A stretch of DNA of 64,000 nucleotides from contig JAQUYQ010000001.1 of NCBI GenBank assembly GCA_028691795.1, positions 106,699-170,698 of the forward strand. The letters are read 5' to 3'. Positions 1,035 to 52,452 of the stretch are shown here, in pieces; the first letter of the stretch is position 1, and each line of letters opens with the position of its first letter. The DNA is from Herbinix sp. (lineage in GTDB: Bacteria > Bacillota > Clostridia > Lachnospirales > Lachnospiraceae). The notes under the pieces were generated by a model. It did not search any database and was not told the DNA's origin. It saw only the letters and a program-made list of their open reading frames with translations. A program made the translations under genes and the position numbers.

Positions 1035-2816
1035 TTAATAGGTACCAGAGAAATCGCTCATGCCGAATCCGGTGTTAGTGAGAACAAGCTCACCCTGAAC
1101 AGGCAGAATTTCAGTGGTAAGATAACGGGACGTGCCCATTACGTTCGGGATGTTCTGAGCATTGGGATTACGATAAGTATTCTCAATGTTGAAGCTGTAC
1201 TTGTAATGCTTGAAGGTATAGGTTTCCGAAGAGGTCGGATACGCAACAATACGCAGACCATACTTCTCAGGAACCTTCATCGAGCTCACAACGTGTACGC
1301 GATCAAGGGTGTTCGTCAGAACGCCGAACTGATAGTCAAGCTGGATACCGCCAACGCGAGTATCATTGTCAATGACCCAACGAACATTGCTGTTCAGCAG
1401 AGTAACATTGTTCGGATGACCATAAACGACAAACATGATATCCGGAGTACGCAGCTTCTTCTTCATTCTCTGAATGAAACGATCAAGAGCGAACTTCAGA
1501 TCCTTCTCGATCCATTCAGGAGTCGAGTACATCTTGCCGGTCGGAATGGTAGCACTGAATTCTTTCGACTCAGTGAAACCTTCGGTGTAACCAAAGGGGA
1601 AGTGAGTCATCGTCTTCCACTTGGACAGCGAAGTGTCAAGGAAAGCAAAGACATCAGAGTCTTCGGTCTGGGTGAGAACGTTACCGATCAGATGGACATA
1701 CTTCGCAGTAATATCGGTATCAAACAGAACGTTGAAATCCTTGATCTTTTCAACGGTCAGACCGGTGTTAATGCGGGTGTTATCCGGGATAACGAACTCA
1801 ATGATTTCTCTCTCGGTATCCAGTTCCAGACTGTTGTTGTTATTCACGTTCGACAGATGCCCACCGAACTTGACCTGGGTAACATAGCTGGGAGCCGAAG
1901 TAACAGAGATAGTACCAGTGTAATAGTCAACCTCACCAAAAATACCAATGGAGATGCTAACAGGAGTATCCTCAGTAGCATCAGAGTTGGTCGTGGTCAG
2001 AGTAACAGTCGTGGTGACTTCATTGTTGAAAGCACCATTAGTGCCCTGCTTAGGCATAATGCTCAGATTGGAAACGGTAAAGGTAATCGCTCCCGAAGTG
2101 GTCAGAGTACCAAAAGCCGTACCAGAGGGAATCGAGCCCTTAATAGCAGAGATGCAGAAATCCATATTCAGAGTGTCACGGGTAGCAAGCGAGCCACCAG
2201 CAATACCAAGAACGTCAAACTTATGAAGGGGAAGAGTGCCAGATTCAGGATAGAACGTATCGGGCATTGCATCGCCCTTACCCAGCTTGACAACCTCTTT
2301 GTACTCTTCATTGTAGTAGATTTCCGGAATGTAATATTTCTTGCCCTGGGCATCCTTCAGGAAGTCACGCTCAAAGGGCAGCTTAATAACAGGTTTAACG
2401 GGGATTTCCGTATTGACAACGTCTTTCGAGTTGCAGGACAGGAAATTCTTCTTAAGAACAGCCAGCGACAGACCGACAACCGGCTCCATCTGGCCAACGG
2501 CAGATTCGCGAACCAGCTCATAGCGAGAGTTCTCGAAAAGCTGAGTCATCTTCTCGCGAATGCAGGAATAAGGGTTGGTATCGGACATGGCCTCAGTAAC
2601 CTGAAGACCATCATCAAGATCCTCCAAAAGTGCCTCACGATAGATTTCAGAATATTCATCGGATTTCAGGATTGTGGCAGCATCGCCAACGATATCCAAG
2701 TTATACTGATTCTTGAAATTCTCCGTAACACTACGAAGATTTTCATCAAATCCCTTATTCTTGGAAATATTAAAGCTGCCGATAGTCTTGGTAAACTCGA
2801 CGGTTTCTTTACGCAT
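1035..2816 (-). CDS. Major capsid protein precursor (AR9/phiKZ-like)
   Basis: 593 aa; acidic N-terminal propeptide ending near LVRES; high-expression codon bias; late promoter and strong SD upstream; near the prohead protease. Confidence 0.75.
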   Translation of the reverse strand: MRKETVEFTKTIGSFNISKNKGFDENLRSVTENFKNQYNLDIVGDAATILKSDEYSEIYREALLEDLDDGLQVTEAMSDTNPYSCIREKMTQLFENSRYELVRESAVGQMEPVVGLSLAVLKKNFLSCNSKDVVNTEIPVKPVIKLPFERDFLKDAQGKKYYIPEIYYNEEYKEVVKLGKGDAMPDTFYPESGTLPLHKFDVLGIAGGSLATRDTLNMDFCISAIKGSIPSGTAFGTLTTSGAITFTVSNLSIMPKQGTNGAFNNEVTTTVTLTTTNSDATEDTPVSISIGIFGEVDYYTGTISVTSAPSYVTQVKFGGHLSNVNNNNSLELDTEREIIEFVIPDNTRINTGLTVEKIKDFNVLFDTDITAKYVHLIGNVLTQTEDSDVFAFLDTSLSKWKTMTHFPFGYTEGFTESKEFSATIPTGKMYSTPEWIEKDLKFALDRFIQRMKKKLRTPDIMFVVYGHPNNVTLLNSNVRWVIDNDTRVGGIQLDYQFGVLTNTLDRVHVVSSMKVPEKYGLRIVAYPTSSETYTFKHYKYSFNIENTYRNPNAQNIPNVMGTSRYLTTEILPVQGELVLTNTGFGMSDFSGTY

Positions 2817-2843
2817 AAACTTATATCTCCTTTCGGTTATTTT

Positions 2844-2855
2844 TACTTTATTGTT
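2844..2855 (-). promoter_or_regulatory. Late (nvRNAP) promoter AACA-N6-TA
   Basis: AACAataaagTA upstream of the capsid gene SD; matches the AR9 late consensus. Confidence 0.7.
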
Positions 2856-3500
2856 TTACTGTTTGTCCTCAAAAGCCTTAATTTTCGATAATAGAGACAA
2901 ATTAATTCTATAAGCCTCTAAAAAGTAGTTATAATTAACTAAATTGATCGTATAAGTATTAGCTCTATAGCTAAATACAATATAGTTAAATGTAACTTCT
3001 TTAAGAAGCTCAAAATTGTGATTAACTTGCTCTACTATTGCGATGATAAAATTATTCTTCTTAGGTATTTGCGAAATTTTACTGATAGTCTCACAAATAG
3101 AATTGTAGATATCAATAAAATTATTTATTAATTTTAATGTTGATAATTTATTATCCCCATTATCATCATTTTCTGTTTCTTCTTCAGAAGTTTCCTCATC
3201 CTCATCATTTTCAGTATCATCCATCTCTTCATCGGGATTGTCATCTGATGGGATTTCTTCATCGGGAGATTCCTCCTCCGACTCTTCTTCCTCTTCAGGT
3301 TCTTCTTCAGGAGTCTCCTCCTCTTTTTCGTCTTCATTATCTTCATCATCGGAATTTACTTTTTCTTCCTCCGGTTCGTTAACATCCTTTTCATCATTGG
3401 GGGCCTCCATGACAATACAAGTGTTAATAATAACATTTTCCAGCGTCACAGATTCAACGATTCCATCGACTTCTTTTAAGCGTTCAAGGAAATAATTCAT
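2856..3500 (-). CDS. Acidic head-associated/scaffold-like protein
   Basis: 214 aa with a long D/E tract and IVES/VMEA motifs; coupled to the upstream gene. Confidence 0.6.
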   Translation of the reverse strand: MNYFLERLKEVDGIVESVTLENVIINTCIVMEAPNDEKDVNEPEEEKVNSDDEDNEDEKEEETPEEEPEEEEESEEESPDEEIPSDDNPDEEMDDTENDEDEETSEEETENDDNGDNKLSTLKLINNFIDIYNSICETISKISQIPKKNNFIIAIVEQVNHNFELLKEVTFNYIVFSYRANTYTINLVNYNYFLEAYRINLSLLSKIKAFEDKQ

Positions 3501-41851: not shown

Positions 41852-41861
41852 TATATATTAT
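41852..41861 (+). promoter_or_regulatory. Early promoter TATATATTAT
   Basis: Upstream of the MazF-like pair. Confidence 0.6.
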
Positions 41862-41919: not shown

Positions 41920-42801
41920 ATGGAAGTTGAAAAAATCGGTACATATCACGCGTTTGATGTGGGGCAAATTTGGATTGCAAAAGCACCGGATAATCGCCCC
42001 GAAATCAAAGATCGCCCAGTGCTCGTTCTCCAGGGAAAGGAGATATATCCTTTTTATGGAAAAGTCAGGGTTGTGACAATAACGCACACAAATCGCTTTG
42101 GGCCGAAAATTATATTGGAGGATGGAATTATAAGCACAATTAGTCTATTGCAAACGAGGATCGTGCCGATTCAGAGTTTATACAAATACGTCGGGGTGGT
42201 CGATAATCATACAATGGAGCTCGTTGAGAATGGTCTTAAATATCTTATGTTTGGGGAAGAACTCCACTCGGAATTGAAAACGACATTGGATACAATCATC
42301 AACCTAAATCAAAAACTGGGAGGCAATAGCGACAACATCTCCCAGATGGAAGAGCTTATTCAGCGCGAGATTGATAATAATAATAATGATATATCAATCC
42401 CCGTCGAGGTTGAAAAGAAGGTATATCCAGCCGAAGACACCCAGCCAGTCGTCGTTGATGATAAGCCCAAGCGAACCAAAAGGAGTATATCTACATACAC
42501 ACGATTGGAGACAGCGGCAATAGTTGCATACAATCTCAATACAGTTCGTGATCTTGTGGGTTATGGACTCAGTTATACCACAAAAGAGAAGATAAAAAAT
42601 AATCCAAACAGAGAAATATTCGCATCGATTGGCACCGATTCGCTTAAAAATCTTCAACCTCTCGAAAAAGCAGGGTTTGTAGCTATGTACAAAAACAGTA
42701 AGCGAGATCTTATACTCGGAATCAATCGTCCATCAACAATGATCCAATTGTATTATGAAAAATTCCTAGCTGAATTTAAAGAGAAAGGAATTAAGTTGTA
42801 A
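41920..42801 (+). CDS. PemK/MazF-like domain protein with long C-terminal extension
   Basis: GQIWIA..E.KDRPVLVLQ...VVTIT...QTRIV...KYVG. Confidence 0.65.
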   Translation: MEVEKIGTYHAFDVGQIWIAKAPDNRPEIKDRPVLVLQGKEIYPFYGKVRVVTITHTNRFGPKIILEDGIISTISLLQTRIVPIQSLYKYVGVVDNHTMELVENGLKYLMFGEELHSELKTTLDTIINLNQKLGGNSDNISQMEELIQREIDNNNNDISIPVEVEKKVYPAEDTQPVVVDDKPKRTKRSISTYTRLETAAIVAYNLNTVRDLVGYGLSYTTKEKIKNNPNREIFASIGTDSLKNLQPLEKAGFVAMYKNSKRDLILGINRPSTMIQLYYEKFLAEFKEKGIKL

Positions 42802-43224
42802 ATGGACAGAATACCTTCTGATAATATCGGGTTTAAACCAGGTCAAATATGGTGGTATGAAGATACCACCATAAGAGACAAAACTCAATATGATGGTGAT
42901 AAAACGATTGTCGGAAAACGACCGGTGATTATTATCGCTAAGATAGTAACTCCCCTCGTGGTTCCATGTTCAACAGAAGGAGGATATCTCGATACACATG
43001 TAAAATTGGATTTTGGGGACATGATAAGCTTCGCCGAATGCGAACTTTTCTCACCCACCAATATGAGATATTTCCTAAATTACAAGGGATTGGTCAAAGA
43101 GGATAAATTCAATGAAATCCTCAATGTCTTAGATGACATCATTCACAACAAATACCCAACCGTCAATCAACCAATACACCAGCTACGAGAACAATTCAAA
43201 CGGAACAAGGAGCAGAAGGTTTAA
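42802..43224 (+). CDS. PemK/MazF-like endoribonuclease
   Basis: GQIWWY...GKRPVIII...VVPCST...HV...SFAECE...YKG. Confidence 0.7.
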   Translation: MDRIPSDNIGFKPGQIWWYEDTTIRDKTQYDGDKTIVGKRPVIIIAKIVTPLVVPCSTEGGYLDTHVKLDFGDMISFAECELFSPTNMRYFLNYKGLVKEDKFNEILNVLDDIIHNKYPTVNQPIHQLREQFKRNKEQKV

Positions 43225-49499: not shown

Positions 49500-49574
49500 G
49501 GCATGTTAGTCGAGCGGTCAAGACACCGCCCTTTCACGGCGGTAACACGGGTTCGATTCCCGTACATGTCACCA
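49500..49574 (+). tRNA. tRNA-Glu(TTC)
   Basis: GGCATGT/ACATGTC acceptor stem; CCGCC-CTTTCAC-GGCGG anticodon arm; GTTCGATTC; encoded CCA. Confidence 0.95.
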
Positions 49575-49624
49575 ACATCTTCTAACTCCTTTTATTGTCG
49601 TCCCATGTCTCTTTACCCTTGCAC

Positions 49625-49708
49625 CGAGGTTCGAAATTACATTATAAATGTAATGGGTCCGGTACGATTCCGGAGGGAGATGAGTTATCATCTCCTAACG
49701 CTTAGTCC
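49625..49708 (+). repeat. Copy 1 of an ~80-nt structured T-loop element
   Basis: CGAGGTTCGAAA-hairpin-TGGGTCCGGTACGATTCCGGAG-hairpin-TAACGCTTAGTCC, repeated at 50666-50745. Confidence 0.85.
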
Positions 49709-49858
49709 CAAGCGGGGTTTCCGAATTTCTTGTGTTGCTCTCCTTCATAATTTGACACATTTATACTTCCGTTTTCTTTTGGTTATTCATAACCCAATTG
49801 TTTGACGATTGACATATATCCTCCCCGCTTGGGATATTGTAAAAGCTGGAATTATAAA

Positions 49859-49868
49859 TATATATTAT
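49859..49868 (+). promoter_or_regulatory. Early promoter upstream of tRNA-Lys and the large ncRNA
   Basis: TATATATTAT. Confidence 0.55.
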
Positions 49869-49898
49869 TTTTGTGTAGTGAGAGAACAAAATACATAA

Positions 49899-49974
49899 AT
49901 GCCTATAGCTCAGACGGCAGAGCAATTGACTTTTAATCAATGGGTCTGGAGTTCAAGTCTCCATAGGCATACCA
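49899..49974 (+). tRNA. tRNA-Lys(TTT)
   Basis: ATGCCTA/TAGGCAT acceptor stem; ATTGA-CTTTTAA-TCAAT; GTTCAAGTC; CCA. Confidence 0.93.
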
Positions 49975-50044
49975 TCGGGTTCTACTACTTTAGTATGAGC
50001 CCATTCTCGATTATTACATCGGAGTATCCGATTTAATAATAAAG

Positions 50045-50665
50045 GTACTCCCTTCTCAGGAGTTCATTGTCGGTCCTTTAAGCCGATACCTAGTGAAGCT
50101 CACTATCCGAGCTTCAATAACGATTCCCTGTTTCTCGGAGCTTATGAGAATGACACTCCCTTCACTATAAGGCGAAATCATTCTATCCGTGAAACCGGAA
50201 TCAAGCGGCCGGCTTCCCGGCCTATCACGCTGACCCGTTCCTATGGGTCTCAAGGTTCGTGCGTTAAGCGGCCCACCATCCCAGAAGCGGCCTAGCCCCT
50301 GGGATGGATATATGATATCGGCGAAGTGATTCATCGCCAAATCGAAACGAGATATCGTTTACGGTTCTACAATGAATCGGATACGGGGAAGGACGACTCC
50401 GATATATTATCGGCTCGTCTCCAGTTCACAAGCGGTTCCTTAAGCCGTTGTCGGCGTTCGGCTATGCCAGTATACACGCCGGCGAGAAATGAGGTGCCCC
50501 CTGCGGCTTTATTAGCCGCCATATTGGGCTCGTAGTCGGTCCTTTAAGTCGACCATTATGTATTGTGGCCGCCCGGTCCGAGGCTTCGGCGATGATCGCC
50601 GTCTATAAGCCTATCTTTTTCGGACGGCCGCGAACTTAACCGATATTATTCGGTTTATTATAAAG
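50045..50665 (+). ncRNA. Large GC-rich multi-hairpin ncRNA of unknown family
   Basis: About 20 consecutive stem-loops; G-U pairs form on the + strand; repeated loop motifs; no credible ORF. Confidence 0.65.
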
Positions 50666-50745
50666 CGAGGTTCGAAATTACATTTATAAATGTAATGGGT
50701 CCGGTACGATTCCGGAGGGATATTTAATATCCTAACGCTTAGTCC
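50666..50745 (+). repeat. Copy 2 of the structured T-loop element
   Basis: Core identical to copy 1; hairpins differ in length but stay paired. Confidence 0.85.
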
Positions 50746-50773
50746 TGTGATATAGAGATATAATCATGTTTAA

Positions 50774-50953
50774 AGGTTTCCACTTCGGTGGGCTGATCGG
50801 ACATAGATTTTACTCTATTAGCAGGGGAGGCCCATGCCTTAGGTGGGAAGTACGGAAAATGCGGCCCGTGCGGGTGAAATTACAGAACGCAGACTGCCGG
50901 TGGAGAAAAAAATAGATTTCTTCGAAAAATCTATTGGTTAACCGGATATACCT
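50774..50953 (+). ncRNA. Candidate structured ncRNA
   Basis: CCAC-TTCG-GTGG tetraloop, GCAG/CTGC, CCCA/TGGG, TGCG/CGCA, CCGGT/ACCGG, AATAGATTT/AAATCTATT stems. Confidence 0.45.
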
Positions 50954-51049
50954 AAAAAGAGACAGATGATTAATTTCATCTGTCTTTATATAATCGCTAA
51001 AACACCAGATACTATAATAACTTAGTATCGCACCACAAGGAGTAAGAAA

Positions 51050-51307
51050 ATGGGCAACGAAATCATTACTACAAAAGAACACGTAAATGAAGTAAACGCC
51101 TGCGTCTGGCACAAGTTTCGTGACCTCGGCCCCGGAATTGTGATTCGGTTCAATCCGAAGATTGCGTCGAAAAAGCAGACCGAAGTCCAATTCGCCGATG
51201 GCACTCGCGGCTGGTATTCCAATTCTGAGTTGGTTTATATCGCCTCTATTGGCGACACCGGCAAACCAAGCTACATCAAGAAAGAAAACGCACATACTGA
51301 GCACTAA
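51050..51307 (+). CDS. Small hypothetical protein (SH3-like barrel candidate)
   Basis: AAGGAG SD; 85 aa; followed by a hairpin at 51322-51353. Confidence 0.6.
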   Translation: MGNEIITTKEHVNEVNACVWHKFRDLGPGIVIRFNPKIASKKQTEVQFADGTRGWYSNSELVYIASIGDTGKPSYIKKENAHTEH

Positions 51308-51380
51308 CGCTCAAAAACTACTTAGGGAGAATATACAAAAATATTCTCCCTAACAAATAATTAATCTTATTTATTTTTGT

Positions 51381-51456
51381 GGGCCTTTAGCTCAATTGGC
51401 AGAGCCACCGGCTCATAACCGGTAAGTTACAGGTTCAAGTCCTGTAAGGCCCACCA
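51381..51456 (+). tRNA. tRNA with CAT anticodon, most likely tRNA-Ile2 (lysidine)
   Basis: GGGCCTT/AAGGCCC; ACCGG-CTCATAA-CCGGT; resembles Bacillus tRNA-Ile2; lacks initiator features; late promoter at 51352-51363. Confidence 0.9.
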
Positions 51457-51523: not shown

Positions 51524-51911
51524 GGGCCCGCCAGGTTTCGACGGGGTAATGAAAGTGTTTATTTCGCACGTATGATTCACGATACGAATTAACCTTAAAT
51601 TTAAATGCTAATACATTTAAACCTGTTGGGGTTGCTGCTTAAGTAGCTTCTCCCTTCACCAAAACGACACACCAATGATAAGACGGTAAGTGTATGAGGT
51701 TCAACGATAGTCATTATCACCGTTTTCTTTGTTTTCGCAAAACAAAGTGGTGGAGGATATAACTTTTATGTCCCACGTGACCAAGATCGTTGTCGCTTAG
51801 AGTTTCATGTTAAGAGTTTTTACTCTATACTCAAAAAGACAACTATTGCGTAAAAAGAATAAACATGAATATTTATTTCGGACACGGGTTCAACTCCCGT
51901 CGGGTCCACCA
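51524..51911 (+). ncRNA. ssrA: tmRNA; tag peptide ANTFKPVGVAA (51607-51642)
   Basis: 5' GGGCCCG...GGTTTCGACGGG; 3' GGACACGGGTTCAACTCCCGTCGGGTCCACCA; G3-U wobble; TAAAT resume context; tag ends AA-stop. Confidence 0.93.
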
Positions 51912-52066: not shown

Positions 52067-52111
52067 ATCTTACATTCTTTATTACAAAGGATGTGGAGAT
52101 AATAAATTAAC

Positions 52112-52216
52112 GTTTTAAGTGAGGGTCGGCTTGCTATAATATTTTGCAAGTGGGGGACTATACTGCATGTCCAAAGGAGTAGGAGTAATTGCTCTGCCTA
52201 CTGTGTAACTTAAAAC
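52112..52216 (+). ncRNA. Candidate four-way-junction ncRNA
   Basis: GTTTTAAGT/ACTTAAAAC closing stem around CTTGC/GCAAG, GGAC/GTCC and AGTAGG/CCTACT hairpins. Confidence 0.45.
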
Positions 52217-52452
52217 AATTTTTATTTTATTTATATTATCACGTTTACATAGTTTTCAAAATAAAATTTAGAAAATATATTGTATTTGGCAGCGTGATAT
52301 TATTAAACATTTCATCTGGGTAATACATCTGGATGATCTGAATCGTTTAACTAGTGTGGGAAAACATCTCACACTAGTTTTTTTACCCTAAAATGATAAT
52401 GTAATATCATAATCACATTATATTAAACTAAACTAATATGGAGGTTTTAATA

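Follow-up and report, generated by a model that had tools for sequence, protein, structure and literature searches.

A predicted large structured RNA behind a jumbo-phage tRNA-Lys gene, with three repeated hairpins that may imitate tRNA-Lys anticodon arms

The structures of large ornate phage RNAs have been solved, and their function is not known. The locus described here raises the question of whether a GC-rich stretch with no obvious gene, at positions 50045-50665 of the window (the whole 64,000-nt stretch of DNA that was analysed), encodes another such RNA, and what that RNA might do. The window is part of a contig of 213,358 nt and 33.5% GC within a 3.05-Mb assembly. The contig carries virion structural, ribonucleotide reductase and endolysin genes together with an AR9-type promoter motif, which identify it as a jumbo phage that was binned with a bacterium; this bacterium need not be its host. 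Its RNA genes form a compact cluster, all on the + strand (tRNA-Glu, tRNA-Lys, tRNA-Met, tmRNA and tRNA-Asn). The 621 nt in question have 51.2% GC, and none of 2128 sampled windows of that length on the contig was as GC-rich, so that the GC-rich island described in a first-pass annotation stands. That annotation took the stretch for a phage non-coding RNA of many stems and reiterated loop motifs, serving as a decoy or sponge. The features to which we refer are listed below in window coordinates.

49625..49712, + strand, truncated upstream copy of the 5' domain of a RAGATH-36-family RNA, 90.6% identical over 85 nt to the downstream copy
49856..49875, + strand, phage early (virion-RNAP-type) promoter, exact AR9 early consensus AAATATATATTAT-(6N)-G, predicted start G49875
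49899..49974, + strand, tRNA-Lys(UUU) with a canonical anticodon arm (A31-U39, U33)
49977..50040, + strand, two predicted hairpins between tRNA-Lys and the GC-rich body, pair probabilities 0.93-0.99
50045..50660, + strand, body of the predicted large structured RNA, fold z -6.99, in no family, ends not mapped
50069..50087, + strand, motif hairpin 1, 5-bp stem, U·G closing pair, loop CCUUUAA (Lys-UUU-like, 6/7)
50431..50449, + strand, motif hairpin 2, loop UCCUUAA (Lys-CUU-like, 5/7, tied with Thr-CGU)
50535..50553, + strand, motif hairpin 3, loop CCUUUAA, a competing local fold predicted to dominate
50662..50905, + strand, downstream RNA of the extended RAGATH-36 family (RF03104, 37.3 bits, E 1.7e-5), 3' end approximate
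50953..50992, no strand assigned, strong hairpin at which the early transcript may end, scored as a terminator on the - strand only

On the + strand, the predicted fold of the stretch reached -240.4 kcal/mol, and none of 20 shuffles was as low; the - strand gave a z of -5.83 (20 shuffles). The minimum-free-energy structure over 49975-50670 contained 29 helices of at least 4 bp and 17 hairpin loops, and the five stems named earlier all appeared at pair probabilities of 0.83-0.98, in agreement with the many stems proposed. The further argument that G-U pairs identify the + strand did not survive, since the + and - structures contain 13 and 14 of them, respectively, and the strands are not separated. 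The Rfam scan returned no match at gathering threshold, and inside the RNA only chance-level matches appeared at E<=10. The GOLLD model (RF02032) had no match at E<=10 in 49560-51400 or across the assembly, and the ROOL model (RF03087) had none at E<=10 in 49560-51400; a second ROOL search was also empty, but it was weak, its control having found nothing. The earlier statement that the RNA is neither GOLLD nor ROOL was thus upheld.

Three internal ORFs of 94, 69 and 51 aa were absent from a collection of 15 billion proteins and had no PHROG match at E<0.05, and a homologue search with the 69-aa ORF was empty. In near-identical relatives, the 69-aa ORF on the + strand has 3 synonymous changes among 5 coding changes and loses its stop in X3 and X11, and the 94-aa ORF on the - strand has 7 non-synonymous changes out of 10, plus frame-shifting indels in X4. 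As had been claimed, the stretch appears to contain no credible protein gene. It likely encodes a folded RNA of about 600 nt, and the description of a large structured non-coding RNA on the + strand, early transcribed and distinct from GOLLD and ROOL, holds; its structure is a prediction.

An early promoter and tRNA-Lys had been placed upstream of the RNA, and the exact AR9-type consensus at 49856-49875 bears this out. The AR9 early consensus AAATATATATTAT-N6-G is described as being read by the injected virion polymerase (PMC5312081). The contig has 45 copies of its core, TATATATTAT, 26 of which are followed within 150 nt by the start of a same-strand ORF, compared with 8.9% of random places. 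The transcript would consist of tRNA-Lys, the two small hairpins, the large RNA and then a second, RAGATH-36-family RNA. The hairpins at 49977-50040 are either a spacer or a true 5' part of the large RNA; the change A50023G in relatives X2, X8 and X12 retains a hairpin pair as G·U. Assignment to the + strand is supported by the promoter and, weakly, by the variants.

The promoter, tRNA-Lys and the large RNA are bracketed by 85-nt direct repeats, the RAGATH-36-family copies, which the first-pass annotation missed together with the anticodon-loop reading discussed below. The downstream copy, which resembles a full-length one, opens with the AAGCGAGGUUC 5' motif at about 50662 and has downstream motifs as in other phage copies, although its 37.3 bits fall below the RF03104 gathering score of 70. 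The RAGATH-36 T-loop hairpin and UAACGCUUAG core are absent inside the large RNA, the cores lying outside it at 49655-49712 and 50697-50774, and the sequence upstream of RAGATH-36 copies in 31 viral loci showed no similarity to the large RNA. RAGATH-36 flanks the large RNA on both sides and is a separate RNA. The absence of a catalogued-family match stands. The ends of the large RNA are unproven: the hairpins at 49977-50040 precede the proposed start, and a RAGATH-36 RNA begins at about 50662. A literature search for RAGATH-36 by name found no paper. As a separate observation, the RAGATH-36 core resembles a permuted tRNA half, with a T-arm (5 bp, loop UACGAUU), a closed acceptor-like hairpin and a D-arm-like CGCUUAG. 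A link to Y RNA and Ro60 was rejected, no TROVE being present in the assembly.

Parts of the stretch were present in 12 of the 16 sequencing runs listed; variants and coverage were examined in 8 of the 16, and the wastewater runs with a small share may be DNA. In X2, a small digester metatranscriptome, one 592-nt contig covers 49909-50500, running from tRNA-Lys into the RNA, with 4 differences and a depth of 13.6. The tmRNA contig of the same run has 16 differences in 374 nt and a depth of 23.5, and the upstream ORF is represented by two short pieces at a depth of 2.5-2.8; other runs contained short pieces of the stretch. These data suggest that the RNA is expressed, and they go no further than that: strand, ends and level cannot be read from such contigs, and some DNA may be among the material.

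The near-identical relatives carry 18 substitutions within 49975-50575, with 50576-50624 uncovered among the matches listed. Together, the substitutions break 2.92 units of predicted + strand pairing, compared with 4.5 ± 0.9 at random places (P 0.052), and the trend drops to P = 0.25 without five clustered changes in X4. Against the - strand fold, they disrupt pairing as much as randomly placed changes would (P 0.45). Breaks fall at three strongly paired positions (50147, 50387 and 50404), and the X4 cluster falls in the apical part of the 50276-50307 hairpin, the six basal pairs of which are unchanged. None of the 18 substitutions lies in the three motif hairpins, where about 1.7 would be expected by length, a difference that is not significant.

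A search for homologues in related jumbo phages, followed by covariation, had been proposed; no diverged homologue was found, and so there is no family covariation to report. When 49580-51000 was compared with phages by blastn, the best 20 of 334 matches covered tRNA-Lys only, and the RNA alone gave 18 phage and 10 plasmid matches, all at E of at least 2 and at most 36 nt long. Two pattern searches of IMG/VR gave 0 matches; a single-motif pattern gave 24, all without a second copy and 23 of them inside long open frames; and a further pattern gave 2 unrelated matches. The double-hairpin pattern had 20 matches in metagenomes (JGI) and 2 in genomes (GTDB), mostly tandem repeats, none with a tRNA or with similarity to the RNA. 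The 215-aa neighbour protein had no relatives in the search made with it. Related jumbo-phage loci numbered 25, at 28-40% protein identity; tRNAs were present in 4 of 24 such loci, the five clusters having no GC-rich island. Blastn against 30 phage records (24 related jumbo phages and 6 RAGATH-36 phages) gave only chance words inside the RNA. Among 54 phage records, a covariance model of the hairpin had 3 matches at E about 0.6, and a single-sequence model for the 3' 281 nt, of low sensitivity, had none. Forty-one related genomes matched through tRNA-Lys only, and 14 of 400 GTDB genomes had short chance matches, 9 of which were inspected. Beyond the near-identical relatives, therefore, the annotated phages and plasmids, IMG/VR, JGI metagenomes, GTDB genomes and phage records searched contained no homologue. 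A diverged family may have gone unseen because these searches depend on exact motifs or single-sequence models. Because homologues are lacking, the structure stays a prediction and the mechanism a guess.

Two kinds of repeated word had to be considered in the RNA. The first-pass annotation had counted eight copies of CUAU, mostly in loops or bulges. All eight positions are right, but the enrichment over 3.64 expected (2000 dinucleotide shuffles) has a nominal p of 0.02 and a family-wise value of 0.97 over all 4-mers; with regard to placement, 3 of the 8 have no paired base, 2 are free in their 3' part, and the remaining 3 have half or most of their bases paired. The copy at 50165 is changed in relative X5, and CUAU was rejected as a sponge motif on both counts. 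AAGCGG (four copies) and AAGCGGCC (three copies) are enriched over 0.17 and 0.01 expected, respectively; all three AAGCGGCC copies are changed in some relative (X4, X5), and these words were likewise rejected as a kept motif.

The threefold hairpin reported earlier was confirmed. The pattern CGGUYCYUUAAGYCG, derived from the three copies themselves, is present at 50071, 50433 and 50537, where chance would give 0.02 occurrences, and the rest of the assembly does not contain it. The copies are scattered along the RNA, 362 and then 104 nt apart. In an alignment of the three, pairing is kept in all 18 stem cells; two changes are double-sided and one is single-sided, and the U·G closing pair is invariant. 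By comparison, slid controls were 22-67% paired; covariation among three copies did not rise above shuffles (118/500). A 5-bp stem with closing pair and 7-nt loop is possible in each copy but is predicted at 0.6, 0.5 and 0.03. Hairpin 1 has pair probabilities of 0.53-0.60 in the full fold and 0.88-1.0 in a local fold, and hairpin 2 has 0.35-0.50; hairpin 3 does not exceed 0.03 in the motif form because a competing local fold wins. Forcing all three together would cost 8.2 kcal/mol. In X3 and X11, A50534G would extend the base of hairpin 3 by a G-C pair.

The loops read best as candidate tRNA-Lys anticodon loops (UUU, CUU and UUU), a reading chosen post hoc as one of at least four tried on a single 9-nt loop. 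For loops 1 and 3, the closest among 55 distinct loops is the anticodon loop of Lys(UUU), with 6 of 7 positions identical; loop 2 has 5 of 7 in common with Lys(CUU) and equally many with Thr(CGU). A random 7-mer reaches 6 of 7 against a Lys loop in 0.27% of cases, against the phage's own tRNAs in 0.66% and against any tRNA in 5%. Thus, the anticodon reading is rarer by chance (~0.3%) than pairing with Shine-Dalgarno (SD) sites (4%) or a palindromic loop (20%). The copies differ in the loop only at positions 32 and 34, which vary in tRNAs, and the register does not shift; the centred YUU anticodon, A37, A38 and a pyrimidine at 32 are present. In tRNAs, U33 is invariant. All three loops have C at position 33. 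No T-loop or D-loop pattern of a tRNA-like elbow was found in 49975-50670.

We tentatively propose, as a best guess that we would still call doubtful, that the RNA is an early, multivalent decoy of the tRNA-Lys anticodon arm on an ornate scaffold. The injected virion RNA polymerase would co-transcribe tRNA-Lys and the RNA in the first minutes of infection, 3' processing of the tRNA would release the large RNA, and its rigid scaffold would display three anticodon-arm-like loops. Their target would be a tRNA-Lys anticodon nuclease of the PrrC, RloC, MazF or PARIS type; binding of lysyl-tRNA synthetase is the less likely variant. With C33 and the U31·G39 pair, the loops would be cut poorly and would hence inhibit competitively, sparing host and phage tRNA-Lys. 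In favor of the decoy, the gene adjoining the RNA is tRNA-Lys, matching the loop reading; against it stand the 3% of hairpin 3, C33 in all copies, the tie of loop 2 with Thr(CGU) and the missing elbow signature. The phage needs tRNA-Lys heavily, as 5033 Lys codons were counted in its 143 long ORFs. Also on the side against the decoy, a search of the assembly turned up neither a T4-type RNA ligase nor RtcB, its ligase control having found nothing.

Published systems bear on the proposed decoy in both directions. According to PMC4756823, a MazF-family nuclease cuts a bare 15-nt tRNA-Lys anticodon stem-loop and needs the stem and a centred UUU; that oligonucleotide is identical to hairpin 1 at 12 of 15 positions, differing at 31, 33 and 39. 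PMC12409363 reports that AriB cuts unmodified tRNA-Lys and that a change at U39 abolishes cleavage, and also that AriB requires contacts outside the anticodon arm and PrrC requires the A37 modification. Both needs count against the decoy, as does the lack in the RNA of any T-arm or D-arm signature that could provide an L-shape. A phage tRNA-Lys rescues from PrrC (PMC11555353), and phage tRNAs that counter tRNA-Lys-directed defence (PrrC, PARIS; PMC11555353 and PMC12409363) share with this locus a tRNA-Lys gene, a strong early promoter and the same conflict. Such tRNAs replace cut tRNA; the large RNA, unable to be charged or to decode, would act as a decoy only. A bare U-rich viral hairpin binds the anticodon domain of LysRS (PMC5113203). 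Like the hairpins here, this HIV-1 tRNA-like element is a viral hairpin with a pyrimidine- or U-rich loop imitating the tRNA-Lys anticodon arm; it is, however, a single element in cis in a eukaryotic viral genome with binding shown, whereas the present case is predicted and consists of three copies on a free phage RNA.

G39 is also found in several tRNA-Lys(UUU) genes of the phage loci that were fetched: among such genes in L092-L096 and L153, several have C31-G39 instead of the usual A31-U39. These genes are possibly nuclease-escape variants.

Other accounts of the same loops have to be weighed against the decoy. The main rival, conceivable although we doubt it somewhat more, is that the RNA is architectural in the manner of GOLLD and ROOL, its loops making tertiary or quaternary contacts by which it self-assembles into a cage or network. 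It has in common with them a length of several hundred nt, dense helices, no ORF and a place beside phage tRNA genes (PMC12286853), the traits of ornate phage RNAs generally. GOLLD and ROOL assemble via kissing loops, some of them palindromic (same source), and here YUUAAG is self-complementary with G·U, so that kissing would be possible between any pair of loops; in copy 2, a change from U to C turns the G·U of the palindrome into G-C. The predicted loop-loop duplexes are nevertheless weak (-0.8 to -3.8 kcal/mol), such palindromes are present in 20% of random 9-mers, and 50053/50484 is the only other loop-loop candidate of at least 5 bp with useful energy (-3.3 kcal/mol). Unlike GOLLD and ROOL, moreover, the RNA has no match to their covariance models, contains three near-identical dispersed hairpins and has only near-identical known relatives; any pseudoknot or oligomer of it is hypothetical. 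Unlikely, in our judgment, is a sponge of the CsrB kind, in which the RNA would soak up an RNA-binding protein, of phage or host, that has nothing to do with tRNA, and the lysine resemblance would be due to chance. Three dispersed copies of a fixed loop on a variable, pair-keeping stem are the typical layout of protein sites, CsrB and RsmZ likewise repeat a loop on variable stems, and C33 is not tRNA-like. The large RNA differs from CsrB and RsmZ, however: its loops lack GGA, its sites number just three in 600 nt, and its scaffold is far larger. Relatives do not preserve the other repeated words (CUAU at 50165 is changed in X5, AAGCGGCC in X4 and X5), and with the motif nowhere else in the assembly, no mRNA targets are visible. 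The multivalent decoy or sponge put forward by the first-pass annotation is therefore plausible through the threefold hairpin and not through CUAU.

The same annotation had suggested that the loops sequester SD sites early in infection. The 3' end of 16S rRNA carries a CCUCC core. An anti-SD mimic, whose loops would resemble the 16S 3' end or base-pair with ribosome-binding sites of the AAAGGA type, could draw on UCCUU in all three loops, on duplexes with SD words of -4.8 to -7.1 kcal/mol and on AAGGA preceding 57 of 143 long phage ORFs. We consider it very unlikely: the loop has no CCUCC core; the register varies between copies while UUAAG is fixed, the invariant UAAG playing no part; the U·G closing pair must melt; the phage's own genes would be blocked too; and 3.9% of random 9-mers pair as well with AAAGGAGG. 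Nor are UCCUU and UUCCU depleted in phage ORFs, although CCUU (z -5.8) and CCUUA (z -3.8) are under-used. Antitoxin mimicry, also raised earlier, found no support in these counts, which covered CUAU as well and 139 phage ORFs. Type III antitoxins are tandem pseudoknot repeats. The copies here are dispersed and form no tandem pseudoknots, and neither a ribonuclease target word nor a type III antitoxin mimic found support. The least probable account, in our estimate, is that no discrete functional RNA exists, the stretch being a structured spacer or decayed element between the RAGATH-36 repeats, or a small protein gene. It is an orphan flanked by 85-nt direct repeats, its pair-keeping trend is weak (P 0.052, or 0.25 without one cluster), and the 69-aa ORF has its share of synonymous changes; on the other hand, the stretch is the GC maximum of the whole contig with a z of about -7, and the lost stop in X3 and X11, the non-synonymous changes and indels of the 94-aa ORF and the empty protein searches all count against a gene.

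The tRNA-Lys decoy has a more specific form, in which the RNA would be an anti-defence RNA, three uncleavable look-alikes of the tRNA-Lys arm covering the UUU and CUU isoacceptors and jamming tRNA-cutting immune nucleases. We regard this form as decidedly unlikely; if it held, RNA anti-CRISPRs would have a tRNA counterpart, and an ornate phage RNA would for the first time have a concrete job. If the hairpins are decoys, phages would answer tRNA-cutting immunity with a dedicated RNA inhibitor, beyond spare tRNAs; if they are not, the RNA is an uncatalogued ornate RNA worth structural study. In either case, repeated, mutable internal hairpins behind a matching tRNA offer a direct test of function. 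A literature search, with most subscription journals outside its scope, found no description of the large RNA or of a phage anticodon-decoy RNA.

Several minor observations were made along the way. In L024 and L033, a 94-nt duplication near the contig end (- strand) holds two GUCGG-UCCCUUAAGC-CCGAC hairpins in a GC-rich repeat ending in a U-run; the loop word is similar, in a 10-nt loop, and these loci have no tRNA or other similarity to the large RNA. Six viral contigs (L010:1550-2310 and the related L009 and L011-L014) share a conserved, ORF-poor stretch of about 800 nt from the RAGATH-36 core to tRNA-Glu, with no further Rfam match in the four contigs scanned, which may be the rest of the RAGATH-36 RNA plus another RNA. 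On the phage contig itself, ORF-free gaps outside the window lie at 1753-3048, which is locally GC-rich (48%), 89402-89491 and 191369-192054; one of the three has a doubtful tRNA-Ile(AAT) call. Within the window, the phage-encoded tmRNA (51524-51911, +) has the tag ANTFKPVGVAA, and a non-coding tract 3' of tRNA-Asn (52080-52400) has hairpins and a terminator-like site at 52349-52379. Two tandem PemK/MazF-like genes, both singletons for which PDB and PADLOC searches gave no match, lie at 41920-42801 and 42802-43224 (+) behind an early-promoter motif at 41852; the second has a weak Pfam match (E 0.013), and the first is above the Pfam cut-off (E 1.7e-8) and carries a 185-aa extension.
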